39,063 nt of DNA from a virus (IMGVR_UViG_3300045988_105464:1-39063); one strand, 5' to 3'. Numbered from the stretch's first letter, positions 4,670 to 23,859 are shown. Notes: generated by a model not told the origin, from the letters alone. A program made the numbers and translations.

Positions 4670-6517
4670 TTATTTCACATTTCCGGTATAGCGGAGCTGC
4701 ACATCCGTCTCCAGAACCGTTGCGGTAGACGATGCCGATTTGCTCTTGAATACCAGCTTGTAGAAGGTGGCCTTCTTCACCTTCATCTTCACCCGCCGTA
4801 CCTGCGGCTTTCGGTTGGTTCCAAAAGACCAGTGGGCGAAGTCCGCATGGGTAAAGGTGGTCAGGCCGGAGGACACGATTTTCTCCGGGTAGTCGCTGCG
4901 GCGGTTGGTCTCCACCGTCACATGCACCCGCGCGTTGCTCTCCGGCTGGATCGCCACGAAGATCAGCGGGCTGTATTTCAGCACCCAGTCCCGGTTAAAG
5001 TCCATGGAGCCGGTAGCAGCGTAGGCGTCAATGTCCTTGCCGTCGTCGTTCCGGTACTGCCGGGAAATATGCACCACGCCGCCGTCAGGCCGGAAGCCGT
5101 AGGTCTCCAGCCCTATCTCCACCATGGCCCGGAAGCTCAATCCGGTGTAGAGATACCATGCGTCCGCGCCGTAGTTCAGGATCAGCGCCTTGTCTCCGTA
5201 CATCCACCAATATTCCTGCGCCGATTTCCGGTTGAAGGTCCGGGTCTCTGCCATATCAAAGCCTTGCAGCGTCACCTCTACCCGGTTGCTGATCCGTTCC
5301 GCGTTCCGCTCGTCAAAGGTGATATTCCCGCTGGTGGACACGCTCCGCCACCGGTACACCGCCTGATCGTCCAGCGTCAGGGGGTTGTTCTCCAGAATGT
5401 CCACCTGTCCCGGAGCCTTATTGCCGAACTGCCGGTTGACGGGGGTCACGTAAAACGCCGCCGTGGTGACGTCCGTAGCCGTTACCAGCGTGGAATAGCT
5501 CATGGAGTAGGTGGCGTCCTGCTTGAATACCACCAGCCGTGCGTAATGACGCACCATGCCGGTGATGGGCGTATTGGCCTCGCCAACCTCCGCCTCGTAC
5601 AGATCCGGGAAGTATTCCGCCGAAGGCTTACCTGTGGCGGAATCAATACCGGAGTAGATGGTCTTGTTGGTGCCGTCTCCGTAGAGAAACACGCGGCTGT
5701 CCGTCTGGCCGTTGTAAAGCTCTGAGAAGCGCATCCCCGTTACCTGTGCCCGTTCTCCGTTGCCGCTGCGGTAGATCAGTTCCAGTGTGTTGGTTCCAGC
5801 AGCGGGGGCAGGAGTAATGGTAAAGGTCCGCGCCGTCAGGTCGGGGGTGTAGGTCTGCGCCGTGTCCCCGATCTTCACGGAGATGATCTCATCCACCGTC
5901 TTTTCCGGGATGTGGAAAACCGTCTCCTTGCCGTCGGGGGAATACAGCACCTTCCGCTTGCCCGTCAGCCGGTTCACGTTTTCCAGCAGAAACCCACCGC
6001 CCGCAGGCGTGGTGGCGTTCATCACCGTGGGAATATACCCTTCTACCGCCGCAAAGCTGCTGTTCTCCTTGCCGTCCCAGCTCATGTACTCATGGCCGTT
6101 CAGCAGGTAAACCTTGTTGGAAAATCCGAAGAACGAGGTCTGGTCCTGTGTACACTGGCCCACAACCTTGGTTGTTGCCGCCGCCGGGTCCAGAGAGAAG
6201 ATCAGACCGCCGAAAGCGGCGAGGGTCCGCTGTTTGCTGTCTACCACGCCCTCCCACGCACCGGAGAAAACCGGGTTTGCTGTGGGGGCCGTGTGGCCGC
6301 TCTCCGCGCACCATGCGTCCCATGCCGTTTTTAGGTTCAGAACCGTCTTTGTGCCGGGGCGGATCTGTAAATGTTTCTCCCGCGTCACACGGAAGTTCCG
6401 CATCTTGCTCATTTCGCCGTTCTTGATCTTGGTATCCCCGTCCGGGTTCTCGTTCAGGCCCAAAAACTGGCGGATCTTCAACACCTGAATATCGTTGCTG
6501 GATGTGATTTGAGCCAT
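4670..6517 (-). CDS. Virion structural protein, beta-rich (probable tail/nozzle component)
   Basis: 615-aa ORF with RBS AAAGGAGG. Aromatic/beta-strand-rich composition. Located between terL and the portal. No catalytic motif recognised. Confidence 0.5.
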   Translation of the reverse strand: MAQITSSNDIQVLKIRQFLGLNENPDGDTKIKNGEMSKMRNFRVTREKHLQIRPGTKTVLNLKTAWDAWCAESGHTAPTANPVFSGAWEGVVDSKQRTLAAFGGLIFSLDPAAATTKVVGQCTQDQTSFFGFSNKVYLLNGHEYMSWDGKENSSFAAVEGYIPTVMNATTPAGGGFLLENVNRLTGKRKVLYSPDGKETVFHIPEKTVDEIISVKIGDTAQTYTPDLTARTFTITPAPAAGTNTLELIYRSGNGERAQVTGMRFSELYNGQTDSRVFLYGDGTNKTIYSGIDSATGKPSAEYFPDLYEAEVGEANTPITGMVRHYARLVVFKQDATYSMSYSTLVTATDVTTAAFYVTPVNRQFGNKAPGQVDILENNPLTLDDQAVYRWRSVSTSGNITFDERNAERISNRVEVTLQGFDMAETRTFNRKSAQEYWWMYGDKALILNYGADAWYLYTGLSFRAMVEIGLETYGFRPDGGVVHISRQYRNDDGKDIDAYAATGSMDFNRDWVLKYSPLIFVAIQPESNARVHVTVETNRRSDYPEKIVSSGLTTFTHADFAHWSFGTNRKPQVRRVKMKVKKATFYKLVFKSKSASSTATVLETDVQLRYTGNVK

Positions 6518-6531
6518 CGTCCGGGCCTCCT

Positions 6532-7917
6532 TTATCCGTAGGATAGATAATCAGCGGTCATCTCCCCGCCCGTCATCACGTCATCGTAGTCCTCGCCCTC
6601 GTCAAAATCGTCCACGATCTTCTCCGCGGTTTTCTGGGCACCCAACACGCGGGTGACACAGAAATACCGGGCAGCGTCGCAGATGTGGGTGATCTCATGG
6701 GGCTCCGTGGCGCAGTCCGAGGGGGTTTTCTCGTCATGCTGGATGGAGGGCAGGTTGCGGATCAGGCCCACGCAGTTTTCCGTCACCAGAAGTCCGGGCC
6801 GGTCCGTGTCGCTCTTCATGGGCTTCAGTAGCTCCTTGACGGCCATCCATCCCTGAACGCGGTTGTTGCTGGCCTTCAGCAGCCCCAACCCGTACTGCGC
6901 GAAGATCTCCGCCATGCTCCGCCCGCTGTCCTTCTGCCGGTTCCACATATCCGGCGGGGCAATGGTGAACTCAATGTGTTCTTCCGGTGGGGTCAGGGCA
7001 TTTGCCAGCTTTGCCGCCTCGCTGACGATCAAGCCGCTTTGCTGTACCTCCCGGTACACATAGGCCCGCCCCTCAAAGTCCACCGCCACCCAAAGGCAGG
7101 CGAACATATCAAGGCCGTAGTCGAACGCCCGGTATTTCTTCCACTCACGAGGCACCCGAACAAAGGGTGCGATCACATGGGTCTCCCGCCGAAACTCCGG
7201 GAAGAACGTGCCTGCCATGGCGTTCCAGTCACCGTAACGCCACGCTCGTCGTACATCCTCCGGCAGCAGGTCCAGCATTTGCTTGTACTCCGGGGACGCC
7301 TCCAAAAGCTGGGGGTTATCGTCCACCGTGGCGGGGATGAAGGTGTAATCCTTGGCCTTTTCCCCCTCTCGGTATTCCCGATCCACGAACAGCCGCTTTA
7401 CCCACAAGTGCCCGATACCACCGGGGTTGCAGGTCAGGTACATCCGCCGGGGGAACTTGGTCGCGCCACGCAAACACGCGCCCAGTGTGCGGAACTGGGA
7501 TTCCGAGAACTGAGTGGCCTCCTCCATGAAGATCCAGTCAAACTCAAGGCCCTGATATTCCTGATCGTCTCCCGCGCCGTAGTGGCCGAACTTGATGATG
7601 CTGCCGTTGCAGAAGAACATCATGCGCATACTGCCGTTGTAACTGCCCACCTCCGGCGGGATCAGCTTTTGCATGGGCAGGATGATGTTCTGTTCCAATT
7701 CCGGGTACTCCCGGCGCACGATCAGGATCTTGATGCCGGGGTAAGTGAGCGCGCCGCCTGCCGCCTTCCGCAGCAGAACGTGTGTCTTTCCGCCGCCTCT
7801 GGCGCCGCCGTAAGCCGTGTACCGGCTCCGGGACTGGCAGAACTTCTTTTGCTTGGGGTTCAGCGTCCCCAAATCTACCTGCACCGTTCCGCCTGCTGTC
7901 TGTTTATATCGAGGCAT
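6532..7917 (-). CDS. terL: Terminase large subunit
   Basis: Walker A motif GGARGGGKTH and Walker B-like DWIFMEEA. The C-terminal part has acidic nuclease-type residues. 461 aa. RBS AAGGAG. Confidence 0.9.
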   Translation of the reverse strand: MPRYKQTAGGTVQVDLGTLNPKQKKFCQSRSRYTAYGGARGGGKTHVLLRKAAGGALTYPGIKILIVRREYPELEQNIILPMQKLIPPEVGSYNGSMRMMFFCNGSIIKFGHYGAGDDQEYQGLEFDWIFMEEATQFSESQFRTLGACLRGATKFPRRMYLTCNPGGIGHLWVKRLFVDREYREGEKAKDYTFIPATVDDNPQLLEASPEYKQMLDLLPEDVRRAWRYGDWNAMAGTFFPEFRRETHVIAPFVRVPREWKKYRAFDYGLDMFACLWVAVDFEGRAYVYREVQQSGLIVSEAAKLANALTPPEEHIEFTIAPPDMWNRQKDSGRSMAEIFAQYGLGLLKASNNRVQGWMAVKELLKPMKSDTDRPGLLVTENCVGLIRNLPSIQHDEKTPSDCATEPHEITHICDAARYFCVTRVLGAQKTAEKIVDDFDEGEDYDDVMTGGEMTADYLSYG

Positions 7918-8007
7918 AATCGCTCCTTATATCTGGCGGACGGGCCGGGTTCATGCACCCGCTCCGTCCATATATGGGGGAAGGGGCCGCAGCCCCCTCC
8001 CATGAGA

Positions 8008-9060
8008 TCACTCGTAATCCTTGGTGCCCTCGATGCCCACGCAGCCGTCCTTGGTGCCAACAGCCCGCATGGTCTGACCAGCGGTCAGAGTCACAGCGGC
8101 GGTGTAGATCTTGGCGGTGGTGGAATACCGGGGGTTGGTACCGTCGGTGGTGTACTTGAACACCACACCGGACACGGCGGTAATGCTGACGGCATGGCCG
8201 GTGATAGACATCGTGGGAGCCGCCAGAATGGCAGCATTGCCGCAAACGGCAACACCGTCGCCCTTGGCGCCCAGCACGAAGCTGTCATAGTAGGTCACGC
8301 CCTGCACCACGGGGCCGGAATAGCCCTTCACCTTGGGCAGAATGTCATACTGCGCCAGCTTCACGGGGTCCACGGTGCTGCCCTTCCACTTGATGAAGAA
8401 GTACACACCGGTGGGCATATAGCGGTCGGGGATGTTCTTCACCCGGCAGCCGTCGAACTGGCCCACCACGCCTCTGGTCAGGGTCTCCTTGGCAAGACTT
8501 TCGGTGCCCAGCCAGGCGGGATCCTGCTTCAGCAGCTTGTAATAGCTGGTGGCAATGTACAGGGTGCGGTTCTCCATGGGCACCAGGGCGTTGGTCATAT
8601 CGGCGTTCAGGTCGATAATCAGGCCGCCGATGGTACTCTTGGTGGGGGCGGTTGTCTCCTGACGCTGGATATTAGCGCCCATCACCCACTTCTTGATGCG
8701 GTGGCGATCCATGTTGGGGGTGGTCCGCTGCTCCAGCTGACGCCGCAGGGCGCGGGAAGCGGATTTCTCAATGGCCTGATCCGTCTGATCCACCGCGTCG
8801 ATGGTGAAGGAGAAGGCGGGCTTCTGCTCGCAGGTCATCTCCTGCTGGGTGTCGCCCAGGTCATAGGTAGTGCCGAATCGGTTGTCGCCGGTGTTGGTGT
8901 ACTCGGTCTCCGGCACAGTGTCCACGCTGCCAACGACAATAGTCTTGCTGTTGGGGCCGGTCCAGGTGTATGCCTTACCGGCATCGTCGTCGGTGATAGA
9001 AGGCTTAGAGAAAGCCTCCGCGATCTTGGTTGCGTATTTAACAGCGTAATTGATAGCCAT
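8008..9060 (-). CDS. Major capsid protein with a C-terminal Ig-like (chitobiase/Fn3-associated type) domain
   Basis: 350 aa, immediately downstream of the scaffold-like gene. The C-terminal sequence VVFKYTTDGTNPRYSTTAKIYTAAVTLTAGQTMRAVGTKDG resembles the CHB_HEX_C-type domain. Confidence 0.8.
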   Translation of the reverse strand: MAINYAVKYATKIAEAFSKPSITDDDAGKAYTWTGPNSKTIVVGSVDTVPETEYTNTGDNRFGTTYDLGDTQQEMTCEQKPAFSFTIDAVDQTDQAIEKSASRALRRQLEQRTTPNMDRHRIKKWVMGANIQRQETTAPTKSTIGGLIIDLNADMTNALVPMENRTLYIATSYYKLLKQDPAWLGTESLAKETLTRGVVGQFDGCRVKNIPDRYMPTGVYFFIKWKGSTVDPVKLAQYDILPKVKGYSGPVVQGVTYYDSFVLGAKGDGVAVCGNAAILAAPTMSITGHAVSITAVSGVVFKYTTDGTNPRYSTTAKIYTAAVTLTAGQTMRAVGTKDGCVGIEGTKDYE

Positions 9061-9105
9061 GGTTCAAAACCTCTCTTTCGTCGGTCTCCCCGGCGATGCA
9101 AAGGC

Positions 9106-10011
9106 TTAGTCCCCCCAGCCCTCCAGGAACGGGTCCTTAGACTTCAGCCCATCACCGGCGCTTCTCATGCTGCCGGTGGAGCGCTCCGCGTTCCGCTGGT
9201 TCTGCTGTACGGAGGCGGTCTCCCGCTTGGCGTCTGCCGCGTCCTGCCGCGCCTGCTGCACGGCGTACCGGGCGTAGGCGGCTACCAGAGAAGAGCCGTT
9301 CCGCACGTCTGCCCAAACTTGAGGCGGGATGCTGTTGGGATCCTTTGCTGCCTCTGGGAATGTCTGTTGAAATTCCTGAATGTCCGCCTGTCGGCGGCTT
9401 GCCGCCTCGGCCTCGGCCCGCTGGGCCTGCGCCATGGCGTCCTGCTGGGCCTGCCGCTCTGCTTCTGCGGCGGCCACAACGGCCTCCCGGTCCTCAAGCT
9501 CCACGGAGCGCCGTGCGTCCGCTTCACTCAGGCCCTCGGCCTGCTTTGCCTGCGCCCGGAGCATGGAAATGTAGTCCTTGGTGTTCAACCCCTGCTGGTT
9601 TGCAAAGTGGTTGACCATCTCCATCACAGGCTTAAACTCGTCATACTGGCTGCGGATGCGGTCATAGTCCATGCCCTTTTGGGCCAGTGCCACCATTTCC
9701 GCTTCGTTTGCCTGCCGCACCTCGCCCATGTGCCGCAGCTCCCATGTCTGGGGCCGTGCGTCCACGGTCTCTGCCTCGGTCTGCTGCGTCTGGGCTGCCT
9801 GCTCCGCGTCTGCGGGGGGCTGAGTGTCCTCTTCCGGCGTCTCTGCGCTCTCGCTGGGGTCCTCGGCGGGCGTTTCCTCGCCAGTCTCCATCGGCTCTGC
9901 GTCCACTTCCGGCTGGTCTGCCGTCGCTTCTGCTTCGTCGTCCCATCCATCCAGAAAGGCGTCCGTAGTTTCGGGCTCCTGTTCGGGGATCTGGTTCATG
10001 TTTTCGTCCAT
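9106..10011 (-). CDS. Scaffolding protein (start moved to the internal ATG at 10011)
   Basis: Acidic, Ala/Glu/Gln-rich, coiled-coil-like protein of 301 aa directly upstream of the capsid gene. The ATG at 10011 follows GGGGAAAGAGG. The longer ORF-track start would run through the stem-loops and terminator. Confidence 0.65.
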   Translation of the reverse strand: MDENMNQIPEQEPETTDAFLDGWDDEAEATADQPEVDAEPMETGEETPAEDPSESAETPEEDTQPPADAEQAAQTQQTEAETVDARPQTWELRHMGEVRQANEAEMVALAQKGMDYDRIRSQYDEFKPVMEMVNHFANQQGLNTKDYISMLRAQAKQAEGLSEADARRSVELEDREAVVAAAEAERQAQQDAMAQAQRAEAEAASRRQADIQEFQQTFPEAAKDPNSIPPQVWADVRNGSSLVAAYARYAVQQARQDAADAKRETASVQQNQRNAERSTGSMRSAGDGLKSKDPFLEGWGD

Positions 10012-10025
10012 ATTGGCCTCTTTCC

Positions 10026-10075
10026 CCGGCCTGGTCTGGCCGGATCTTTGTATTTTCAAAGCCTGGTCTGGCTTT
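10026..10075 (-). promoter_or_regulatory. Twin stem-loops sharing an identical 12-mer in the scaffold/capsid 5' leader
   Basis: ccggcc-tggtct-ggccgg (10026..10043) and aaagcc-tggtct-ggcttt (10058..10075). Each has a perfect 6-bp stem and the same hexaloop. The 12-mer gcctggtctggc is repeated exactly. Confidence 0.5.
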
Positions 10076-10086
10076 GCTGACAAAAT

Positions 10087-10149
10087 AAAAAACGAGACCA
10101 CAAGAAACGGCTTTCGCCGTTCTCATGGCCTCGTTGGGCTCTCGTTTTT
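10087..10149 (-). terminator. Intra-operon terminator-like structure (A-tract, branched GC stems, T-tract)
   Basis: aaaaaacgaga (10087..10097) pairs with tctcgttttt (10140..10149). An inner hairpin gaacggc-GAAA-gccgtt is present on the minus-strand RNA, followed by U6. Confidence 0.45.
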
Positions 10150-10336
10150 ATTCGGTTTTGATGGGGAAGGGGACGTCTGTATCCAGCTCCCGCCCCTCAA
10201 AAATGGTGGGGTAGTGGCTCACCTTGCATCTTCGGCAGTAAATAGGCGTGTTGTAGATCACACTGCCCGGTTCGATGTGCTGAAGCGCCTTGCCGCAGAT
10301 AGGGCAGCGGTAGACCCACGTCCCGTCTACCACCAT
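10148..10336 (-). CDS. Zinc-ribbon small protein
   Basis: 62 aa with CPICG...CRRC. RBS GGGGAG. Overlaps the stop of the upstream gene. Confidence 0.6.
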   Translation of the reverse strand: MVVDGTWVYRCPICGKALQHIEPGSVIYNTPIYCRRCKVSHYPTIFEGRELDTDVPFPIKTE

Positions 10337-10776
10337 GCCCCAAACTCCCCGTGTTCAATGCCGCCGTAGAGGTTTTCCACGTCTCCGATCACGCTGGGCA
10401 GGCTCTGTCGGCACAGCTCCAGCTGTTCCAGAAACGTCTGCCACAGGAAGTTGGCTCTGCTGGGGTCCTCCTCCAGCAGCAGCAGACCTGCCAGACCGTA
10501 GGGCAGCGCCCCGGTGCAGATCCGCTCATCCAGCGCCACCTCGTCCGTCATCTCCGTCACCTTGGGGCAGATAGGCCGCTTGCCGCCCGCCGCCTCCAAA
10601 GCCTCCCGGTAGTTGTCACTGTACGGAAACGCCCGGTCTAAAACGCTGTTCAGCAGGGAAACGGTCCGCAGCTTGTACTCCTTGGTGTCCGCCGTGTCCG
10701 TGGATCCGGTGGATTCATTCTGGGAATCCATCAGGTGGATGGCAATGTCAAAAATATGCTGTACCGTAACCGCCAT
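10327..10776 (-). CDS. Hypothetical protein (head-module position)
   Basis: 149-aa ORF with RBS GAGAGG. High third-position GC consistent with coding. Confidence 0.6.
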   Translation of the reverse strand: MAVTVQHIFDIAIHLMDSQNESTGSTDTADTKEYKLRTVSLLNSVLDRAFPYSDNYREALEAAGGKRPICPKVTEMTDEVALDERICTGALPYGLAGLLLLEEDPSRANFLWQTFLEQLELCRQSLPSVIGDVENLYGGIEHGEFGAWW

Positions 10777-10777
10777 A

Positions 10778-11020
10778 TCACACCTCTCGCCCCTTCAGGC
10801 TGGCTTTCATGGTGTTCAGATCGTAGGTCATCAGGTTGTCAATGCCCTGTTCCACGCTTTTCTGCTGGTCCGTAGGCTCCTCCGCTTCCGGCTTCTCCGG
10901 TTCCGTGGGGGAGGGGGCTTTGATCTCCCGCAGCAGCCGCAGGATCAGCACTGCGCATACGGCAGCGCCTATGCTGGCCGCACCGCAGATTAGAGATAAA
11001 ACCAAAATCAGGCCGTTCAC
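10778..11020 (-). CDS. Small membrane protein (one N-terminal TM segment)
   Basis: GTG start at 11020 preceded by GAGGAGG with a 7-nt spacer. N-terminal hydrophobic helix LILVLSLICGAASIGAAVCAVLIL. Confidence 0.6.
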   Translation of the reverse strand: MNGLILVLSLICGAASIGAAVCAVLILRLLREIKAPSPTEPEKPEAEEPTDQQKSVEQGIDNLMTYDLNTMKASLKGREV

Positions 11021-11032
11021 CTCGCCGCCTCC

Positions 11033-11566
11033 TCACTTGAAGTCGCTTGCGTCCACGCCGTCCCCAAAGGTCACGTTCACGCTGATGTCCTGGCGGGTCT
11101 CCTGCTTGTCCTGATAGCCGCCCAGGCGCTTCTGCTTGTTCAGGAAAATGCCTCGCGTCACCATGCCTTTTTCCTGGTAGATGGGGCTGGTGTCGATCTG
11201 CTCCTGAATGCGCTGATAGGCCAGCCGCACGTAGTAGCTCATGACGCAGCGGGGATCGTCGATCTCCTCATTGCCCGCTTCAAAGGCTTCCACCTGTGCC
11301 TCGACCACATCGGCCTCCCGGCCATCGTTGTAGTCATAATACCCCTGAAGCCGCTGAACCGTCCATCGCATCGCATTGGCAAGGCCCGCCTCGCTGTATG
11401 CCTGCTCCAGCCGGTCCTGCGTGTCAAAGTATTCCTCGGATCCCTTCAGGAACGCCTTGATCTTCTCAATCGTCTGCTTCTTGTGGGCCGCGGCGGCTTT
11501 CTTGTGCATGTTGTCCATGTGCGCCTTGTGCTCTTCCGCAGTCGGATTTTTCTTCTGATAAGCCAT
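11033..11566 (-). CDS. Hypothetical protein, candidate small terminase by position only
   Basis: The ORF-track ORF 11033..11803 is trimmed to the ATG at 11566 (RBS GAGGGGG) because its N-terminal 79 codons read through two tRNA-type sequences. 177 aa, charged and helical. Confidence 0.55.
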   Translation of the reverse strand: MAYQKKNPTAEEHKAHMDNMHKKAAAAHKKQTIEKIKAFLKGSEEYFDTQDRLEQAYSEAGLANAMRWTVQRLQGYYDYNDGREADVVEAQVEAFEAGNEEIDDPRCVMSYYVRLAYQRIQEQIDTSPIYQEKGMVTRGIFLNKQKRLGGYQDKQETRQDISVNVTFGDGVDASDFK

Positions 11567-11593
11567 GCCCCGGCCCCCTCTCGCAAAAAATTT

Positions 11594-11665
11594 TGGCGCA
11601 GACGGCAGGACTTGAACCTGCGCATACCTCCGGGCGCGGTGCTCTACCGGCTGAGCTACGTCTGC
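11594..11665 (-). ncRNA. tRNA-like element with a truncated, non-canonical anticodon arm (72 nt, CCA encoded)
   Basis: GCAGACG-TA-GCTC-AGCCGGTA-GAGC...GCAGG-TTCAAGT-CCTGC-CGTCTGC-G-CCA. The acceptor, D and T arms are canonical. Only 19 nt (ACCGCGCCCGGAGGTATGC) lie between the D and T arms, so no 5-bp stem with a 7-nt loop can form. Confidence 0.6.
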
Positions 11666-11758
11666 AAATGTCCCCGCCATGGTACGTATCGTCGAGAGGC
11701 GTGGCGAGGGCTTCACCGGTCTTTCCCGGTTGCCAGCAACGAACTGTCCTGTCCCGGA

Positions 11759-11834
11759 TGGCGGTCCCGGCAGGGATCGAACCTGCGACCCAGCGGTTAA
11801 CAACCGCTCGCTCTTCCGACTGAGCTACGAAACC
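11759..11834 (-). tRNA. tRNA-Asn(GUU): tRNA-Asn (anticodon GTT), CCA encoded
   Basis: Hand fold: GGTTTCG/TA/GCTC-AGTCGGAA-GAGC/G/AGCGG-TTGTTAA-CCGCT/GGGTC/GCAGG-TTCGATC-CCTGC/CGGGACC/G/CCA. 76 nt. Confidence 0.9.
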
Positions 11835-12355
11835 ATGCTCCGGTGGGCTGTGTGGACCCACCGGGCAACAGGAAAGGAACTGAAGGTGAAAAATGGCATC
11901 TGACACAGGAGGCAGGCGGGTTCTATCCCGCCAACTTCATTCAAGCATATTTCATCAAGCGAATACAATGGGTTTCAGTTATTTTCGTAATGTTCTACAT
12001 AAAATCCCCCGCCCCCTTTTTCCGCCACCCCCCAGAAGGAGCACCGGCATAGCTTCCCGCAGCTACACTGCAAGTTCTTGGAGGGGGAGAGGGGATGTGT
12101 GTATATCAGCCCTATACTCCGCGCGAGAGACACCCCCTGTTTTTCCGCTACCCCCTAGTACACCCCCTCCCCGTCCCTGGTAGTAGGGCCTCCCCAGCGG
12201 CAGAGACTACCGCCCCAGCCCCGGAGCTGCTGAATCGCCCCAGCCAGCCGGAGCCAACAACAGGGATTGCCCAGACCGGGAGAGGAAATACACAGAATCG
12301 ACACAGCAACAGCCGAAAGCCAGCAGTCCCAACGGAAATATTTAATAGCCCCTTA

Positions 12356-12451
12356 AATCTCACCGGAAGAGGGTAATTGCCGCAATCTCACAATAACTCC
12401 GAATATCTCGCAAATGTTCCGTTTTGCTCCCGTTTTCTCTCGTTATCTCGC
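12356..12451. repeat. Four phased ATCTCRC boxes (iteron-like)
   Basis: atctcac at 12356 and 12385; atctcgc at 12405 and 12445. Spacings are 29, 20 and 40 bp, close to multiples of a helical turn. Confidence 0.5.
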
Positions 12452-12508
12452 GTTTTTTATTCGCTTCGTCTCTTTCTTTCGCTACTCTCTCGGTAGAGTA
12501 TATATATA

Positions 12509-12547
12509 ACACCCCCCTGTAAGAAATATATATTTATCTCTCTGGGG
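12509..12547. repeat. Palindromic element A (ACACCCCCCT-N8-TATATAT...GGGG), related to element B at 22767
   Basis: acacccccctgtaagaaatatatatttatctctctgggg. C-run and G-run arms flank an AT core. The 10-mer acacccccct is shared exactly with 22767..22776. Confidence 0.6.
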
Positions 12548-12656
12548 TAGGTGGGAATACGCCCCCATCTCTCACTCTCCTATTCTCTCCCCCTATAGTC
12601 CCCCTCTCCTTCCCTCTCTCTCCCTGCCCCCGCTGCCGCTGCTGCCGCCCCGCTCA

Positions 12657-12694
12657 CAAAGAGAAAAGCGCCGGGGGTGTTATCCCTCGACGCT
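12657..12694 (-). terminator. Rho-independent terminator of the RHH gene
   Basis: Minus-strand RNA: AGCGUCGAGGG-auaaca-CCCCCGGCGCU (11-bp stem with one mismatch and one wobble), followed by UUUUCUCUUU. Confidence 0.6.
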
Positions 12695-12704
12695 CTGTCG
12701 CTCA

Positions 12705-12881
12705 TTACAGCTTGTCCCGGATGGCCTCAATGATCCAGGCGTTGACGCTCTGGCCTGCGGCGGCTGCTGCCGCTCTGATCTGGGCCTTGGTTGGTGGCTC
12801 TGTCTTACTCGTCATTACCACGATGCGCTCTTGATTTTCTTTCTGCCATATATTCCGCCGATCTGGCTTTCTTTCCTCCAT
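12705..12881 (-). CDS. Ribbon-helix-helix (CopG/Arc-like) DNA-binding protein, 58 aa (below the ORF-track cutoff)
   Basis: Hand translation: MEERKPDRRNIWQKENQERIVVMTSKTEPPTKAQIRAAAAAAGQSVNAWIIEAIRDKL. It has a beta-strand (RIVVM) then a two-helix pattern, and ends in the G.S.N.WI.EAI motif typical of RHH proteins. It has its own promoter and terminator. Confidence 0.6.
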   Translation of the reverse strand: MEERKPDRRNIWQKENQERIVVMTSKTEPPTKAQIRAAAAAAGQSVNAWIIEAIRDKL

Positions 12882-12906
12882 TATTTCACCGCCTTTCTTG
12901 CCCTAC

Positions 12907-12936
12907 ATTATACAAAATCGCCGCAAATCATGTCCA
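12907..12936 (-). promoter_or_regulatory. Leftward sigma-70-type promoter for the RHH gene
   Basis: On the minus strand: TGGACA-18 nt-TATAAT, ending 25 nt upstream of the ATG at 12881. Confidence 0.5.
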
Positions 12937-13007
12937 TGACAAAAATGCACAAAAAGTCATGGCAATGATTGTTGATTTTGCCTGCTTGACAGCGTCATGG
13001 AAATGAC
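12927..13007. promoter_or_regulatory. Three 14-bp operator-like sites GTCATGGnAATGAy
   Basis: Site 1 at 12927..12940 (inverted), site 2 at 12956..12969, site 3 at 12994..13007 (perfect GTCAT-ggaa-ATGAC). Site 1 covers the leftward -35. Site 3 fills the spacer of the rightward promoter. Confidence 0.6.
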
Positions 13008-13014
13008 GTATGAT
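12986..13014 (+). promoter_or_regulatory. Rightward sigma-70-type promoter of the accessory cassette
   Basis: TTGACA (12986..12991), 17-nt spacer, TATGAT (13009..13014). It lies 60 nt upstream of the first cassette gene. Confidence 0.7.
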
Positions 13015-13074
13015 TAGGCCAACAAAAGCAAACACGACAACGCCACAGGCCGACAGGCCGGAAAGGACAACATC

Positions 13075-13275
13075 ATGCACATCATCATCTTCACTATTAG
13101 GCAAGCCGGGCAGACAATCGGCAATACCCCTATCCGAGAGCAGGCAGTTGGGGCAGCCAAAGCCCGCGCCCAGCAGATGCGATTCCCCGTTTCCGTCATT
13201 GCCCACTGTGACACTGGCAAGGAGATAGAGGTCATCTTCTATCCTGACGGCACCAGCAAACGGATCAGAAAATAA
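13075..13275 (+). CDS. Hypothetical small protein
   Basis: 66 aa with RBS GAAAGGA 7 nt upstream. First gene after the promoter. Confidence 0.6.
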   Translation: MHIIIFTIRQAGQTIGNTPIREQAVGAAKARAQQMRFPVSVIAHCDTGKEIEVIFYPDGTSKRIRK

Positions 13276-13341
13276 TCGGGGCCGGTGGCCCGGCCCCCCA
13301 CCAATCAGCAATCACGACAAAAATTTTAGGAGGATCACACA

Positions 13342-13842
13342 ATGACTACTTACTTTATCAACTGCAAGAACCTCGACGAGCTGAAGAAGGCTTACAAGGC
13401 CGCCGCCATGAAGAACCACCCCGACAAAGGCGGAGACACCGCCACCATGCAGGCCATCAACGCCGAGTATTCCGCCCGGTTTGAGGTCCTGAAGCGGTCC
13501 CAGAATGAGCAGGCCGCCGAGGACACCACCGGACGGACCCACGCCACCACCGAGAGCGCCGGTGATTTCATCGCCATCATCGCGGCCCTGCTGAAGCTGG
13601 ACGGCCTCGAAATTGAGTTGTGCGGTCGCTGGCTCTGGATCGGTGGCAACACCAAGGAGCACAAGGAAGCCCTGAAGGCTGCCGGGTGCCGGTGGTCCTC
13701 CACTAAGAAGCTATGGAGTTGGCATTTCGCCGAAGAGGGTCAGCGCTGGCACAAGGGCACCAAGACCATGGCCGAGATCCGCAGCAAGTACGGCAGCACC
13801 ACCTTTGCCCGTTCCACCAATTCCGACGCGCTCCCGGCTTGA
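13342..13842 (+). CDS. J-domain (DnaJ-like) protein
   Basis: N-terminal LDELKKAYKAAAMKNHPDKGGD contains the HPD motif. The C-terminal Trp-rich segment reads GRWLWIGGNTKEHKEALKAAGCRWSSTKKLWSWH. RBS AGGAGG. Confidence 0.8.
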   Translation: MTTYFINCKNLDELKKAYKAAAMKNHPDKGGDTATMQAINAEYSARFEVLKRSQNEQAAEDTTGRTHATTESAGDFIAIIAALLKLDGLEIELCGRWLWIGGNTKEHKEALKAAGCRWSSTKKLWSWHFAEEGQRWHKGTKTMAEIRSKYGSTTFARSTNSDALPA

Positions 13843-13876
13843 CCGGGGCGCGCCACCACCTGAAAGGAGTATTGCT

Positions 13877-14074
13877 ATGAGCTACGCAATCGAGACCATC
13901 GGCACCGGCAAGCGCACCCGCTACACCGTGAAAGCCGTCACCGAGACCGGCACGAACCCCACCAACGGCAAAGCCTACCGCACCGAGGACGCCGCCCGCC
14001 GTGCCGCCGCTGAAATGGGCCTGACCGTTTCCGCCGTCGGGGATCTCTGGCAGATCCTCCACGCCACCCACTGA
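13877..14074 (+). CDS. Hypothetical small protein
   Basis: The ORF-track frame is trimmed to the ATG at 13877 behind GAAAGGAG. 65 aa. Confidence 0.6.
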   Translation: MSYAIETIGTGKRTRYTVKAVTETGTNPTNGKAYRTEDAARRAAAEMGLTVSAVGDLWQILHATH

Positions 14075-14088
14075 AAGGAGCATGAATC

Positions 14089-14244
14089 ATGATCCAGATC
14101 AAAAATATTTTCGATAGCCTGCGCGACGATGTTTTAAGCGGCAAAATGACGTTGAAGGAAGCCGCCGTGGAGCTTTACAGAAGCGGATGCACGAACTTCA
14201 TCGACGAGGAAGCCACCCGCCGCCGGTTACATTTGGCCGACTGA
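14089..14244 (+). CDS. Hypothetical small protein, 51 aa (below the ORF-track cutoff)
   Basis: ATG at 14089 follows GAAAGGAG. Translation: MIQIKNIFDSLRDDVLSGKMTLKEAAVELYRSGCTNFIDEEATRRRLHLAD. It fills an otherwise empty gap in the operon. Confidence 0.5.
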   Translation: MIQIKNIFDSLRDDVLSGKMTLKEAAVELYRSGCTNFIDEEATRRRLHLAD

Positions 14245-14290
14245 CACCACCGCCCGCCCCGGAGGTAACGAGGGCAGAAAGGAACACACC

Positions 14291-14503
14291 ATGAAACCCT
14301 ACGGAATCGCCGTCCCCGGCTCCGTCATCAGCGCCAAGACCGCAGCCGGGTATCTCCGCCGCACCGCCGCGTTTCTGCTGGCCCCGTCCCGCTTCTCGAT
14401 GGAATCTTGCGCGGTACTTTCCGACATTGAAAGCCGGATCGTTTCCGCCGGTTTCCTGACGTGGGATCAGGTGGAGCAGATCGAAGAGGAGGCCACCGCA
14501 TGA
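14291..14503 (+). CDS. Hypothetical small protein
   Basis: 70 aa with RBS AGAAAGGAA. Its stop overlaps the next start (ATGA). Confidence 0.6.
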   Translation: MKPYGIAVPGSVISAKTAAGYLRRTAAFLLAPSRFSMESCAVLSDIESRIVSAGFLTWDQVEQIEEEATA

Positions 14504-14955
14504 GCTATCTTGACCTCTTCCAGCGCTACGGCAACCCCAGCCGGGAAGCAGATATACGGCTTTCCGGCTGGCTGCTCCGGCCGGACGCTCTGACGGCGGA
14601 GAAAATCGCAGGCTATGACCAGAGCGCCGCCCGCCTGATTACCGAGGCTCAAACCCTGATCGACCAACTGACCGAATACCGCGCAGCCCTGGCGGAGCGA
14701 TACGCCGCCCTTGCCACTGCCGCCTACCGTGACCGGCTGGAGCTGACCCGTGACCCCGGTTACAGGGGCAAGCCGGTAATCTACTTTGTGCGGATCGTCC
14801 GCACCTATGAGGACGGCACAACGGAGCGCGTTTTGGACGAGAAATATTTCGGCACGCAGCGCCGGAAAGCCTTCGCCCGGTTCGCGGAGCTGAAGCACCA
14901 GCGCCCCGGCATTGAAACCATGCAGGACACTGAAAAGCGCAGCTGGGAGCGTTGA
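14500..14955 (+). CDS. Hypothetical protein
   Basis: Start set to the ATG at 14500 (RBS GAGGAGG, 7-nt spacer, ATGA coupling). 151 aa. Confidence 0.6.
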   Translation: MSYLDLFQRYGNPSREADIRLSGWLLRPDALTAEKIAGYDQSAARLITEAQTLIDQLTEYRAALAERYAALATAAYRDRLELTRDPGYRGKPVIYFVRIVRTYEDGTTERVLDEKYFGTQRRKAFARFAELKHQRPGIETMQDTEKRSWER

Positions 14956-15022
14956 CAACCGGCGCGGCCCATGTTACCATCAACTTACAGACCGGCCCAC
15001 ACCGGAGAAAGGACTGAACGCC

Positions 15023-15205
15023 ATGGCAAACTACTATATCAGAGACGCAGCTCACGCCGCCGCGATCCTCGACGAGTTCCGCCGCTGCGGTGACTGCGGC
15101 AACTGCGCACTTAACACCCCGGAGGGCTGGCGCTGCTCCCACATGGCGGAGCAGGCCGAAAAATACTTGAGGGATCACAGAGAGGAGGCCCGGAACAATG
15201 GCTAA
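15023..15205 (+). CDS. Cys-rich small protein
   Basis: ATG at 15023 follows GAGAAAGGA. 60 aa with CGDCGNC...C. Confidence 0.55.
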   Translation: MANYYIRDAAHAAAILDEFRRCGDCGNCALNTPEGWRCSHMAEQAEKYLRDHREEARNNG

Positions 15206-15605
15206 TTTGTTTGAGCGGTACGAGGACCAATATGGCCCCGTTGCAAGTACCTACCTTTACACGCTGGGCGGTGATCCTGCCGCCATCGTGGCGGAGATGG
15301 AGCGCACCCAGGCAGCGCCGGAGGCGGACCCGCTGGCGTTTCTGGCTCCGCTGATGCCCACCACCCCGGAACAGGACGCACACAACGCCATCATGAAAGA
15401 GATCCAGCGGCTCTATTTTCTGCCGATCTCCCGCGCTTCCGCTTTGGCCGTGTGTAACGTGCTCGGCGAGGCCGGCGAGCTGATCCCCTTCCCCGGCCTG
15501 CCGGATTTCCGTTTTAATGCCTGGACGTTTAAAAACGCCTGGAACGAGGCCAACCCGGACGAGGCACGGATCACGGTAAACGGTGCCGCCCTGCTGAGTG
15601 TTTGA
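15198..15605 (+). CDS. Hypothetical protein
   Basis: 135 aa with RBS AGAGGAGG. Last gene before the terminator. Confidence 0.6.
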   Translation: MANLFERYEDQYGPVASTYLYTLGGDPAAIVAEMERTQAAPEADPLAFLAPLMPTTPEQDAHNAIMKEIQRLYFLPISRASALAVCNVLGEAGELIPFPGLPDFRFNAWTFKNAWNEANPDEARITVNGAALLSV

Positions 15606-15615
15606 CCCCGCAGAA

Positions 15616-15652
15616 CAGCGGCCCGGAAAAACTCCGGGCCGCTGATTTTTTA
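15616..15652 (+). terminator. Rho-independent terminator of the accessory cassette
   Basis: cagcggcccgg-aaaaact-ccgggccgctg is a perfect 11-bp stem, followed by attttttatt. Confidence 0.85.
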
Positions 15653-15669
15653 TTCCGTTTTCGCCATGC

Positions 15670-15887
15670 TTCACAGTACGTTCACAGTATAGCCAGAAAT
15701 CCCACTGAAATCCTCATAAAGTGTTAACAGATGGTTATTTATTCACCATCTACGCCTTATTACATCAGCCTGCACAAAAGCCCATCAAACCACGCAATTT
15801 CAACGCTTCCGGTGTTTTTTAGAATTGCGTTTTGATGTAACCTGATGTAGAAAAATTGAATAAAAACTTCACAGTAACTTCACAGTT
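15670..15887. other. attP-like region: two pairs of TTCACAGT arm-type direct repeats flanking an imperfect palindrome
   Basis: ttcacagta at 15670, 15681 and 15868, and ttcacagtt at 15879 (11-bp spacing within each pair). Inverted arms tacatcag/ctgatgta (15761/15842) and catcaaaccacgcaatt/aattgcgttttgatg (15783/15823). The region abuts the integrase 3' end. Confidence 0.5.
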
Positions 15888-16974
15888 GCGAGACGGGTTT
15901 CTCGTCGAAATACGCCGTCAGCTTTTCGGCTGCCGTCTGCCTCCGGTCCTGCCGCAGATGGGTGTAAACCGCCTCCACCACCTCCGGCGTATCGCCCAGC
16001 AGCCCAGCCGCCTGTCTGGGGTCAAGCCCCGCCTCATAACAGATTGTCGCAAAGCTATGCCGGAAGCAGTGCGGCGTGATGGGAAACGTCTCCACCGTCT
16101 CGCCGTTTTCGCCCTGCTGGATCTGATTCAGGCCCACGTCCCGGCAGTAGTGCCGCCACTCCCGCGTGATCTCGTGGGGCCGCATATAGCCCCCATCGTC
16201 ACCGGGGAACAGCAACCCGATCCGGTTTTTCGGCAGTGCCGCTGCCAGAGGCGGCAGCAGGGGAATATCCCGCAGGCCGTTATCCGACTTCAGATGATTT
16301 TCCAAAACCGGCTTGGTGGTTGCGTAGTTGATCTTTTTGTCGATGTGGATCACGCCAGCTTTGCGGTCGATGTCACGATACGTCAGCGCCAGCGCTTCAC
16401 CCCGGCGGCATCCGGTGTAAAGCAGTAGATACCCGAACAGCCACCAGCGCGCCGTCTTAGCCTCGCCCGCCGCCCGAACGGCCTCCTCTTGCTCTTCCGT
16501 CAGCGCCTCCCGCTTTTTGCAGGGCAGACCCCGGCTCTTCTTAACCTCCGCCGCCGGGCTGATCCGAATATCGCCCTTGATGACGGCATGGGTGAAGATC
16601 ATCCGACAGACGGCAAGCTCAATGCCGACGCTGTTTGCGCTGCGGCCCTGCGCCTCAAAACGCTTGATGTAGTTCCGCACATCTACCGGCTCGATCTCTG
16701 ACGCCCGCCCCGGAAACGCCTCTTTCAGACGCTTCACAGCGTAGCTGTATACCCGCCGGGACGATTCGGAGATCTCGCTTTCATGCTCTCGCTCCCACTC
16801 GTCCGCGATCACCGGGAAATTCCGGCCTTTCTCCGCCTCCAGCTTGTACTCTAATATCTTGCGGTCTACCTCTCTGTCAGTCTTGCCGCGAAACGCTACC
16901 CGCTTGCCATTGATGGTGCGGATTGCCTCGTGCAGCCCGTCCTTGCGGACGCCATATTTACTTTTCTTCGCCAT
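15880..16974 (-). CDS. int: Tyrosine recombinase / phage integrase
   Basis: 364 aa. The C-terminal catalytic region has YTGCRRGEAL (Arg), HCFRHSFAT (H-x-x-R) and VEAVYTHL (Tyr). The N-terminal part resembles SAM-like/arm-binding domains. Confidence 0.9.
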   Translation of the reverse strand: MAKKSKYGVRKDGLHEAIRTINGKRVAFRGKTDREVDRKILEYKLEAEKGRNFPVIADEWEREHESEISESSRRVYSYAVKRLKEAFPGRASEIEPVDVRNYIKRFEAQGRSANSVGIELAVCRMIFTHAVIKGDIRISPAAEVKKSRGLPCKKREALTEEQEEAVRAAGEAKTARWWLFGYLLLYTGCRRGEALALTYRDIDRKAGVIHIDKKINYATTKPVLENHLKSDNGLRDIPLLPPLAAALPKNRIGLLFPGDDGGYMRPHEITREWRHYCRDVGLNQIQQGENGETVETFPITPHCFRHSFATICYEAGLDPRQAAGLLGDTPEVVEAVYTHLRQDRRQTAAEKLTAYFDEKPVSQL

Positions 16975-17013
16975 TTTTTCCTTTCCTCCTGTTGCATCGC
17001 CAGGGGGATCGTG

Positions 17014-17469
17014 CTATACTGTGGTTGATCCTCCTTTGGCTTTGTCGTGATTGCGATTGGTGGTATCATCTGCCGTCTGAGTGTTCCAGCACTCAGACGG
17101 CTTTCTATTTATCCTATGTACTATGTACCGGATCGCGCCCCAGCCCCCGTGAGTAGCGTCCAGATAGAGCAGCAGCAGAAAAACCAAAAGGGAAACGAGA
17201 ACCCCGAACAATACCCGCTTCTCCCACTGTTGCTGGCGGATCAGCCGCCGCAGATCGTCGATGTGAGCGGCGTAAATGCCATGGTCATCGTCCTGTTCAC
17301 TGTTCCGCAACACCTCCAGAATCTTTTCGGCCATATCATCCGGCGGTTTCGCCGCGCCGGAAATGTAGCGCGATACCATACTTTCTGATACATTGCACTG
17401 CTCGCCGATCTCCCGCAGCGTCAGCGGGCTTTTCATGCGCATTGCGCGGGCTTTTTCCGAAAAGTTCAC
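17014..17469 (-). CDS. Membrane-anchored HTH (XRE-like) protein
   Basis: GTG at 17469 follows AAGGAGG with an 8-nt spacer. HTH segment LTLREIGEQCNVSESMVSRYISG, then one TM segment VLFGVLVSLLVFLLLLYL. Confidence 0.65.
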   Translation of the reverse strand: MNFSEKARAMRMKSPLTLREIGEQCNVSESMVSRYISGAAKPPDDMAEKILEVLRNSEQDDDHGIYAAHIDDLRRLIRQQQWEKRVLFGVLVSLLVFLLLLYLDATHGGWGAIRYIVHRINRKPSECWNTQTADDTTNRNHDKAKGGSTTV

Positions 17470-17681
17470 CGTTTTCCCCTCCTTGCAAGTTTTTTGCAAG
17501 GAAAATCCTCCCTTTGAATTGGACTTTCCTGCCAGATGGGTCTATTATTCTCATAGGCCCACTCCCCTTTCCCCGGTCCCGCTTCGGCGGGCCGGGGTTT
17601 CAAATAGAAAGGAGCATCCCATGACAGACCTTGAAATCCTATTGGCATTGCGTTCCCTGTCCCCGGAAAAGCAGGTGCTTG

Positions 17682-18011
17682 CTATTCAAGCCCTGCAAGA
17701 GCTTCTATTATCGCAACAATTCGTTCCCGGTCCTCCGGTGAGAGATTGTGGATCATCGTGAGCAGCCTTTTATCTTCTGCATTCAGCTCGCCCTCATTCG
17801 TGGGGGCGGGCTGTTTTTCGTCTATCAGATATGAAGGCTGCACGTCAAACAGCTTCGCCATTGCTTTTATCTTAGATGTTGGTATATCGTCTACCCGGCC
17901 GCACTCCCATTTGCTTACAGCATTGGTTTTTACCCCCAGCTTTTCGCCTAATTCCGTTTGTGTCAAGCCGAGGGCTTTCCGGTGCAGCCGGATCTTGTCC
18001 CCTATTGTCAT
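17682..18011 (-). CDS. CI-like repressor (XRE-family HTH)
   Basis: IRLHRKALGLTQTELGEKLGVKTNAVSKWECGR is a classic HTH_3 motif. The gene is divergent from the cro-like gene across an operator-rich spacer. Confidence 0.8.
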   Translation of the reverse strand: MTIGDKIRLHRKALGLTQTELGEKLGVKTNAVSKWECGRVDDIPTSKIKAMAKLFDVQPSYLIDEKQPAPTNEGELNAEDKRLLTMIHNLSPEDRERIVAIIEALAGLE

Positions 18012-22670: not shown

Positions 22671-22766
22671 CAGCTTTGCCGTGTGTGTCTAAAGAATGAT
22701 GACGGGCGGATGCAAGCAAGCCGCAGCACGATCACCGACATCCCCGGCAAAAGAAAAAGCCCCCCC

Positions 22767-22809
22767 ACACCCCCCTAAAGAAAATATATATATTTCTCTT
22801 AGGGGGGGG
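22767..22809. repeat. Palindromic element B (ACACCCCCCT-N8-TATATATAT...GGGGGGGG), related to element A at 12509
   Basis: cccccctaa/ttagggggg form perfect 9-bp outer arms around an AT-rich core. Sits in the 176-bp gap before gene 22847. Confidence 0.6.
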
Positions 22810-22846
22810 AGATAGATGTACAACAGAAGTACTACAGAGGTTCTAC

Positions 22847-23729: not shown

Positions 23730-23859
23730 GCTTGTGATTGACATGCAGGAGGACGGCGACCTGCTGGCCTGCAAGGAGACGGTTGCTATGCTGCTGGAGC
23801 CCATCGGCCGGGTGCGTATCGTGCAAATCATTGTAGACGGAAAGGAAGAAAAACGATGA
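23722..23859 (+). CDS. Hypothetical 45-aa protein
   Basis: GTG at 23722 lies 6 nt after GGAGG (the ATG at 23716 has no spacer). Its stop overlaps the ATG of the repeat protein. Confidence 0.4.
   Translation: MVRLVIDMQEDGDLLACKETVAMLLEPIGRVRIVQIIVDGKEEKR

Follow-up and report, generated by a model that had tools for sequence, protein, structure and literature searches.

Genome setting and coding content

The window, by which we mean the whole 39,063-nucleotide stretch IMGVR_UViG_3300045988_105464, had a terminal overlap of 36 bp, giving a circular assembly and a complete phage genome of ~39.03 kb. The phage is temperate and carried an integrase and a repressor at 15.9–17.5 kb. Early genes for an exonuclease, an SSB, a helicase-loader-like protein of 134 aa and RusA were located on the + strand. 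The minus strand carried the genes for structure and lysis, namely those for the major head protein, the large terminase, a P22-like portal, a holin, and an endolysin. The region under study, positions 11835–12656, belonged to the minus-strand side and extended from a small RHH gene to a tRNA-Asn gene (Table 1). The small terminase (TerS) encoded beyond the tRNAs had a conserved HTH-like motif, and its homologues at 45–50% identity matched the Pfam family GP3_package (PF16677; P22 gp3 family). The large terminase was of the Terminase_3/Terminase_6N type, a type that usually goes with headful (pac-type) packaging. Two divergent sigma-70 promoters of near-consensus sequence, accompanied by operator-like inverted repeats, were found at 12907–13014, beyond the RHH gene.

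A nucleotide search of 50,697 GenBank phage records found no relative of the region; in near mode bases 6000–18000 gave zero matches, and in distant mode the tRNA genes alone matched. From IMG/VR, 55 related loci were fetched via the small-terminase gene, with the region 74–96% identical among them, and 37 sequences of the region were aligned (alignment A1). More distant relatives were found via small-terminase homologues and the pattern of conserved boxes. One related contig was binned with a Dysosmobacter MAG, and the phages form a family of uncultivated temperate gut phages.

The longest ORF within 11835–12656 was 96 aa. ORFs of the region were intact in just 1–4 of the 37 homologues, except for one that was intact in 15, and the segments bearing them differed in length out of frame among homologues. 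Small genes were therefore rejected, every ORF being broken in relatives, as was an antisense ORF of 148 aa in a sister lineage, which had two in-frame stops in L060. The region is truly non-coding, as the preliminary description had stated. The richness in G-runs that it had reported was also borne out: the + strand had 18 runs of at least four C per 822 nt, corresponding to G-runs on the tRNA strand, which was the genome maximum for segments of this length (the runner-up region had 12).

Table 1. Features of the region, its flanks and the related site near the replication genes.
Feature	Position	Strand	Remarks
Small RHH gene (HicB/TacA/Arc-like), 58 aa	12705–12881	-	weak Pfam HicB/TacA1 matches, phrog_13890
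Terminator-like hairpin	12658–12693	-	10-bp stem 12693–12684/12677–12668, loop ATAACA, then TTTTCTCTTT
G-rich triplet-like repeats, then polypurine tract	12560–12657	-	
AT-rich centre: (TA)5 tract and G/C-clamped (TA)n palindrome CCCCCCTGTAAGAAATATATATTTATCTCTCTGGGG	12499–12547		
Purine-rich tract, A-tracts phased ~10.25 bp	12380–12495	-	
Cross-lineage box ATAAAAAACGCG	12449–12460	-	single copy in genome; kept in L057, L096, L100, L101, L121
Box ATTTAAG..ATTAAAT	12340–12358	-	conserved, in all lineages
Direct repeat CTGTGT-N5-CTGTGT	12290–12306	-	conserved, in all lineages
Variable G-rich segment	12165–12289	-	alternative, non-homologous versions among close relatives
Box 1 module: GGGGGTAGCGGAAAAA, 22-nt G-rich spacer, GTATAGGGCT, then CACATCCCC	12091–12156	-	
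Box 2: GGGGGGTGGCGGAAAAAGGGGGCGGGGG	12006–12035	-	
Invariant AT-rich block, including GCTTGATG (11953–11960)	11935–12005	-	92–98% identity, 37 homologues
Hairpin GGCGGG/CCCGCC	11915–11932	-	in putative leader
Hairpin CCGGTGGG/CCCACCGG	11840–11864	-	5 nt upstream of tRNA-Asn
tRNA-Asn (GTT)	11759–11834	-	abuts 3' end of region
tRNA-like element	11665–11597	-	3' of tRNA-Asn
Small terminase (P22 gp3-like), 177 aa	11033–11566	-	first protein gene past region
Site A: palindrome 22760–22809 and iterons TACAACAGAAG/TACTACAGAGG	22760–22845	+	upstream of helicase-loader-like gene

Tests for a large structured RNA

The preliminary description had proposed a ROOL- or GOLLD-class RNA, or another large structured RNA, co-transcribed with the tRNAs. 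Covariance models, folding energy and covariation all failed to support this. All 4227 Rfam 15 models were run with cmscan on both strands; at gathering score the tRNA genes were the only matches in the window, and the further matches at E ≤ 10 in 11400–13100 were noise, apart from an abiF hairpin that scored below threshold and lay outside the region. The models of ROOL (RF03087; sequence and multi-pseudoknot structure), GOLLD (RF01998; with a universally conserved 3' domain) and other large RNAs matched neither at gathering score in the window nor at E ≤ 10 in 11400–13100, and they were absent at gathering score from 14 related loci. A bona fide skipping-rope RNA (RF02924; 55.1 bits) was detected in one relative, L062, in the equivalent region upstream of terS, and this model gave no match to the window's region even at E ≤ 10.

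The mutually complementary blocks and the two local hairpins pointed out earlier were indeed present where they had been placed. As a whole, however, the region folded no better than its dinucleotide shuffles (z = −0.31 for the tRNA strand, −0.37 for its complement), so that the blocks do not exceed chance, and covariation gave the long-range ones no support. A 12-nt complementarity between 12455–12466 and 11957–11968 was not kept in relatives, judging by inspection of the alignment. RNAalifold on alignment A1 (37 sequences) gave −117.7 kcal/mol, with a covariation term of just −6.4. Double changes occurred in 9 of 145 pairs, compared with 7.2 in shuffles (52 of 500 shuffles reached 9), and further pair types numbered 75 compared with 75.8; neither of these two measures, the ones robust to relatedness, showed any excess over shuffles. 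The predicted long-range helices joined a polypurine tract to a U-rich tract and were uninformative, because they varied only by A/G changes opposite U.

A sliding alignment-shuffle test detected no conserved structure from 12660 to ~12190, and z stayed above −0.6 in the tRNA-strand segments from 12660 to 12109. Local hairpin signal was found solely in the 3' third (~12190–11835), with alignment-shuffle z between −1.8 and −3.7. This signal depends largely on G-run/C-run pairing. The hairpin next to the tRNA-Asn gene is a twelve-pair helix that carries no covariation information, since 11 pairs were invariant and one varied on one side only; the hairpin at 11915–11932 had one pair with an exchange of G-C for A-U (22 vs. 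14 sequences). For the module spanning boxes 1 and 2, sense-strand z was centred on zero in nine sequences (−2.1 to +1.5), and a common RNA fold was rejected because the minimum-free-energy structures differed between lineages. The excess of self-complementarity in L096 and L100 was similar on both strands (z −3.4/−4.7 and −6.4/−6.8, respectively), which points to Watson-Crick inverted repeats in DNA. Self-complementarity in L101 was strand-asymmetric (z = −5.3 sense, −1.35 antisense), leaving some room for an RNA-level feature.

The adjacent tRNA, which had been the main argument for an RNA, proved not to be conserved, as sister lineages keep the region without a neighboring tRNA gene. The tRNAs of L057 were 1.8 kb downstream, none was found near the region in L096, L100, L101, and L132, and L121 alone among these relatives had a tRNA directly before terS. 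Every test thus points to a DNA control region and not to a large folded RNA like ROOL or GOLLD.

Conserved boxes, palindromes and putative promoters

A common gene order was held in L057–61, L096/97 (prophages in contigs of 245 and 109 kb), L100, L101, and L121. It consisted of a DnaJ-like gene, the small RHH gene, a terminator and the gene-free region (0.83–1.16 kb in relatives), then terS, three small genes, a gene for a ~300-aa protein, and those for the major head protein and the large terminase. The region was in the identical position in five further inspected lineages (L057, L096, L100, L101, and L121), with small-terminase identity down to ~45% among them. In L132, where TerS was 36% identical, the double boxes described below were kept and the contig stopped before the rest of the region. 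A small RHH homologue with the invariant C-terminus QSVNAWIIEAI(R/K)DKL preceded the region in all lineages, and a terminator hairpin followed the RHH gene in each lineage inspected. The hairpin of the window was read by eye from the sequence and was not called by the scan tool; its counterparts in L096, L100, L101, and L121 also had a T-run, and the L100 copy was called by the tool (13 pairs).

Conservation across lineages took the form of short boxes in a fixed order and with conserved spacing, separated by variable spacers. The order began with lineage-specific iterons, which were of the GGGGGA type in the window, L057, and L101 (GGGGGAT nine times in L101), GGTGGAGTA seven times in both orientations in L096/L100, and AGCAGAGRGTAAC five times in L121. 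An AT-rich palindrome followed, with perfect 17-bp arms in L101 and as a nested palindrome of ~150 bp in L100. Then came ATAAAAAACGCG, a TTTAA..TTAA box and CTGYGT-N5-CTGYGT as a direct repeat; past a variable, G-rich stretch lay GGGGTRGCGGAAAAA with GTATAGG-like and CACATC motifs 22 nt on, a second GGGGTRGCGGAAAA box, and finally the AT-rich block. The double GGGGTRGCGGAAAAA boxes, 80–125 nt apart, are the mark of the family; the box 1 composite had the identical 22-nt spacing in L057, and composites of this kind were present in L096, L100, L101, L121, and L132. L062 had no GGGGTRGCGGAAAAA boxes.

Within the window's own group, the boxes in 12290–12358 showed 94% column identity and were unique in the genome. 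The segment at 12165–12289 showed 54–76% identity in alignment A1, with cassette-like replacement, and the AT-rich centre likewise sat in a cassette, of which there were four types among close relatives. The polypurine tract carried same-orientation GGGGG(A) iterons, including GGGGGACTATAGGGGG; the iteron arrays of L096, L100, L101, and L121 were clearer than that of the window. The AA/TT periodicity of the purine tract at 12380–12495 ranked 4th–5th among 974 segments of the genome (top 0.5%), in the company of the repressor operator and attP regions, and TRF reported a period of 10. Indels of helical units were dropped as proof of DNA phasing, the length variants of the array being +8, +10, and +18 nt. 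Compared by eye, the boxes showed no convincing likeness to the consensus sequences for DnaA boxes, sigma-54, sigma-B/H/W, or IHF. Of two Chi-like motifs, GCTGGNGG was absent from the window's region and AGCGG was not enriched there; the 66:0 bias in GCTGGNGG orientation among the 38 window-group sequences may be mere G-richness.

The C-run/(TA)n/G-run palindrome occurred exactly twice in the 39 kb, at 12512–12547 and at 22760–22809, the two copies being colinear and in one orientation. Runs of at least four TA repeats were found genome-wide only at 12499, 12526, and 22784. The second palindrome, 40–90 nt upstream of the helicase-loader-like gene, forms site A together with its iterons. Site A of relatives had such a palindrome and three ATTAG-N3-CTAAT iterons, and over 25–30 kb in these phages the iterons were almost wholly confined to site A and to three of the four cassette types. 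Type-1 regions, including that of the window, had no ATTAG iterons even where their own site A has them, and the window's own iterons differed between the region and site A. The other conserved boxes were not repeated near site A and were unique to the region.

The cumulative GC skew had its minimum in a trough at 22.25–23.5 kb, with site A inside. Transcription direction does not explain this trough, because it lies within a block of co-oriented genes. No GC-skew switch was seen at the region itself. Site A is the best candidate for the primary origin, since the palindrome, the iterons, and the skew trough are all found there, and the region would hold a second site related to it, as judged from the shared palindrome. 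The four cassette types were compared with the alleles of 13 flanking and 38 early-region proteins, and tracked none of them. This attempt to find a binding partner through co-variation of proteins and cassettes failed, and the cassettes also mismatched the site-A iteron type.

Near-consensus extended −10 sigma-70 promoters were found at the 3' end of the region in L096 (TTGAAA-16-TGaTACAAT) and L100 (TTGAAA-16-TGaTATAAT), 46–115 nt before terS. With a terminator at its 5' end and, in these two relatives, such a promoter at its 3' end, most of the region falls outside the predicted transcription units. The window's block at 12005–11935 aligned via GCTTGA with the −35 element of the L096 and L100 promoters. 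No sigma-70 promoter was matched in the window's own region, and because a recognisable −10 element was absent from 12005–11935, a promoter in this block would be activator-dependent. The block is thus probably a late promoter or activator-binding region.

Interpretation and comparison with known systems

The reading that we prefer, with a probability of about one half, is that the region is a composite of cis-acting DNA in which an origin-related module resembling oriR of the Bacillus phage SPP1 is joined to a late-promoter and leader module. It builds on these results: the region is non-coding and conserved, it has an ordered set of boxes, its palindrome is duplicated, and signals of RNA structure are lacking. 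It also lies in the direction of the fallback offered in the preliminary description, a packaging-recognition or replication-origin region or both, which the evidence favors. The upstream two-thirds (~12657–12290) would constitute an origin-related module for protein binding and unwinding, made up of the G-run iterons, the (TA)n palindrome, the purine tract with phased A-tracts, and the short invariant boxes, and presumably bound by a host factor or by the phage's own machinery for initiating replication. Such a module may serve as a secondary origin, or as a site of fork arrest and of the switch to concatemers at the head of the packaging operon, similar to what has been proposed for SPP1 oriR. 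The downstream third (~12160–11835), with its two GGGGTRGCGGAAAAA boxes and AT-rich block, would act as a late promoter with activator sites, giving a late transcript that runs from a short hairpin-bearing leader through tRNA-Asn and the tRNA-like element into terS. The resemblance of the phage exonuclease, SSB, and RusA to SPP1 proteins implicated at oriR speaks for the origin-related part. Against the composite model stand the cassette types, which track neither protein alleles nor site-A iterons, the region's want of a skew switch of its own, the absence of the other boxes near site A, and the lack of a predicted sigma-70-type promoter in the window's region.

Packaging provides a possible, though rather improbable, alternative. 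TerS, encoded just downstream, would bind the repeated boxes (the GGGGTRGCGGAAAAA pair or the G-run iterons) of a pac region, and the phased A-tracts would bend or loop the DNA so that the large terminase is placed for the first headful cut. The location directly upstream of terS, the type of the large terminase, and the co-occurrence of repeated boxes and phased A-tracts agree with such a role, the circular assembly is compatible with headful packaging without being proof of it, and ends of related contigs were enriched in the region, with 8 of 19 ends within 5 kb. These ends were scattered, however, and several carried Nextera/TruSeq adapter remnants, so that they look like assembly breaks at G-runs and were rejected as physical genome ends. 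The start of L008 consisted of 45 foreign nt matching nothing in the genome. Different cassette types occur with identical TerS proteins, which argues against TerS recognition, and the window and L062 share a distinct type of TerS recognition helix, yet the boxes are present in the window and absent from L062, while lineages with the other helix type carry them too. A conserved part of the TerS HTH could nevertheless recognize the conserved boxes, as far as the sequences indicate. Pac sites of the P22 type lie inside the TerS gene, and packaging does not account for the palindrome's second copy next to the replication genes. In SPP1, pac (pacL/pacC/pacR) has bent DNA and overlaps both the late promoters and the TerS gene at its 5' end (PMC6316719). 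The region is similar to SPP1 pac and other TerS recognition regions in its position directly upstream of terS, in its overlap with the presumed late promoter, and in its repeated boxes and phased A-tracts (bent DNA); it differs in being four to five times longer and in having boxes that do not track the TerS recognition-helix type.

We regard as unlikely that the region is an operator or regulatory array for a repressor-type protein, the adjacent RHH protein or another, that silences or times the late operon; the iterons would then be Arc/Mnt/omega-like binding repeats and the region would insulate the RHH unit from the late promoter. Arrays of short repeats, direct or inverted, are what RHH proteins bind, and each lineage has an RHH gene linked to the region. 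The iterons are lineage-specific, as is the RHH beta-strand, and the near-consensus late promoters of L096 and L100 would need repression in a lysogen. Within the window group, however, the iteron tract is conserved although the N-terminal half of the RHH protein varies widely (three unrelated versions), cassette type shows no association with RHH alleles (AUC 0.50), and the RHH unit already has clear operator-like inverted repeats at 12926–13006. Slightly less probable still is a functional non-coding RNA, either a weakly structured G-rich transcript (G-quadruplex-rich, protein-sponging, or R-loop-forming at an origin) or a structured element of smaller size within the 3' third. The sense strand is G-rich in every lineage (G 26–37%, C 20–23%), as such a transcript would be, and the local hairpin signal in 12190–11835, compensatory exchanges at two individual pairs (456/591 and 1030/1038 in alignment A1), the sense-specific excess folding of L101, and the skipping-rope RNA in the equivalent region of L062 all fit an RNA. 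This is countered by the absence of an Rfam match, the global z of about −0.3, the lack of detectable conserved structure in 12660–12190, and the relatedness-robust covariation measures (9 vs. 7.2 pairs; 75 vs. 75.8 types). The sense-strand z of boxes 1 and 2 and their lineage-dependent predicted helices, the conserved terminator directly upstream, and the promoter at the 3' end in relatives likewise argue against it. Least probable of all is that the region gives rise to a G-rich non-coding RNA of ~0.8 kb with no classical conserved fold. It might be an R-loop or G-quadruplex transcript for an origin or primer, or an RNA that sponges proteins or ribosomes and is produced together with the tRNAs at the onset of late expression; such an RNA would go unseen by covariance models and covariation tests.

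The composite reading places the region among intergenic stretches of the ori/pac/late-promoter type, ordinary in kind and uncharacterised in detail. The analysis yields a box-by-box map of a conserved cis-acting region heading the packaging operon of an uncultivated temperate gut phage family, together with a candidate primary origin (22760–22845) and a related second site. The boxes are targets for experiments on replication, packaging, and late transcription, and the map can serve as a template when similar gaps without genes are annotated in phage genomes from metagenomes.

In phages and prophages, ROOL and GOLLD typically lie close to tRNA genes or tRNA islands, which is not a defining feature (PMC12286853). 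The region resembles them in size range (0.6–0.8 kb), in phage origin, and in the tRNA gene that adjoins it in this genome. It differs in having no covariance-model match, excess folding energy, or covariation, in the conservation of boxes and not of helices, and in sister lineages whose regions have no adjacent tRNA. This removes a false lead, as tRNA adjacency and G/C-run patterning are insufficient for calling a ROOL/GOLLD-like RNA. The skipping-rope RNA fills the equivalent non-coding region upstream of terS in L062, but the window's region does not match it and L062 is without the GGGGTRGCGGAAAAA boxes. The origin of lactococcal phage c2 and ColE1-type origins use a non-coding transcript. 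They are comparable in that the c2 origin is also a non-coding intergenic region between early and late genes, and the G-rich non-template strand of the present region could by analogy favor R-loops; unlike them, the region has no predicted promoter to transcribe it and a terminator directly upstream, so that the likeness is purely one of analogy.

[quoted passage not shown] SPP1 oriR is a second origin bound by the origin-binding protein gp38, which is proposed to stall the fork there and bring about the switch to concatemer synthesis by an exonuclease, an annealing protein, an SSB, and a resolvase (PMC6316719). The window's region likewise is a long non-coding stretch in or beside late genes, has direct repeats (G-run iterons) beside an AT-rich element of the unwinding type (the (TA)n palindrome), and shares an element with a second site at the replication genes ~10–13 kb away, in a phage with genes for an exonuclease, an SSB, and a Holliday-junction resolvase. 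The differences are that the two sites share only the palindrome (with ATTAG-N3-CTAAT iterons in some relatives), and that the phage, known here from sequence alone, has another host, is temperate, and encodes a TerS of the P22 gp3 type. If the origin-related reading is true, the two-site oriL/oriR logic of SPP1 would be repeated in a very different phage lineage.

Contig ends and a Chi-like motif in the gene-free region

Of the contig ends lying ≤5 kb upstream of the small terminase gene (terS) among the related IMG/VR loci, 8 of 19 fell inside the 0.87-kb gene-free region, at differing positions. These were the 5' ends of L008, L014, L018, L020, L034, L036, L038, and L052; in three of them (L020, L036, and L038) the first bases are Nextera or TruSeq adapter. 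Assemblies apparently break, or coverage drops, at the G-run region. Counted over the window group's 38 homologous regions, GCTGGNGG, which contains the Escherichia coli Chi sequence GCTGGTGG, occurred 66 times on the sense strand and not once on the antisense strand; no copy of GCTGGNGG lay in the gene-free region of the window itself.

Candidate origin, promoter pair and flanking genes

A second locus of the G/C-clamped palindrome, site A, was located directly 5' of a helicase-loader-like gene and within the GC-skew trough of the genome, and ATTAG-N3-CTAAT iterons were present at site A of relatives. The best candidate for a primary origin of replication is site A.

Beside the RHH gene, two divergent near-consensus sigma-70 promoters (11/12 matches each) were interleaved with the inverted repeats TCATGTCCATGAC, GTCATGGCAATGA, and GTCATGGAAATGA, an arrangement that looks like a small genetic switch for the RHH gene and the 13.0–15.7-kb gene block. 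In most of the lineages inspected, the RHH gene keeps as its neighbour a gene whose 166-aa product weakly matches DnaJ (J-domain). Elsewhere, an ORF that lacks any family match and occurs in just 3 of 19 related genomes contained an 18-bp unit repeated in tandem ∼23 times, with strong G skew and encoding a six-residue protein repeat.

Coordinates of features in the window and in related loci
Feature	Sequence	Position	Strand	Description
Site A	Window	22760-22845	+	G/C-clamped (TA)n palindrome and 11-nt iterons
Promoter pair	Window	12907-13014
DnaJ-like gene	Window	13342-13842	+
Tandem repeat	Window	23943-24356	+	Within ORF 23856-24461
tRNA-like element	Window	11597-11665	-
abiF-like hairpin	Window	11672-11708	-
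Skipping-rope RNA	L062	3312-3405	+
Tad2-like gene	L057 and L060	5338-5790

Elements around terS and their known counterparts

The second "tRNA" of the window, a tRNA-like element or pseudo-tRNA and not a normal tRNA, scored 52 bits against RF00005, received no tRNA call by ARAGORN, and had its anticodon arm shortened to ∼2 bp plus 9 nt (9 nt in place of 13 model positions). In the sister lineage (L057 and L060), a Tad2-like gene (PF11195, the anti-Thoeris Tad2 family) was inserted amid the first genes of the structural operon, with two tRNA genes just downstream.

Another relative, L062, with a TerS 66% identical, was without the GGGGTRGCGGAAAAA boxes, the conserved double boxes of the gene-free region, and had a 100-aa Sigma70_r4-like gene immediately before terS. 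Its non-coding region upstream of terS contained a bona fide skipping-rope RNA (RF02924; 55.1 bits versus a gathering score of 36.7). In the window, a 37-nt hairpin between tRNA-Asn and the tRNA-like element, found in only ∼7 of 55 related loci, gave a full-length match of 34.9 bits to the Rfam abiF RNA (RF03085), below the gathering score of 37 (E = 7e-5 to 4e-4), and could be a phage-borne mimic of this abortive-infection-associated RNA.
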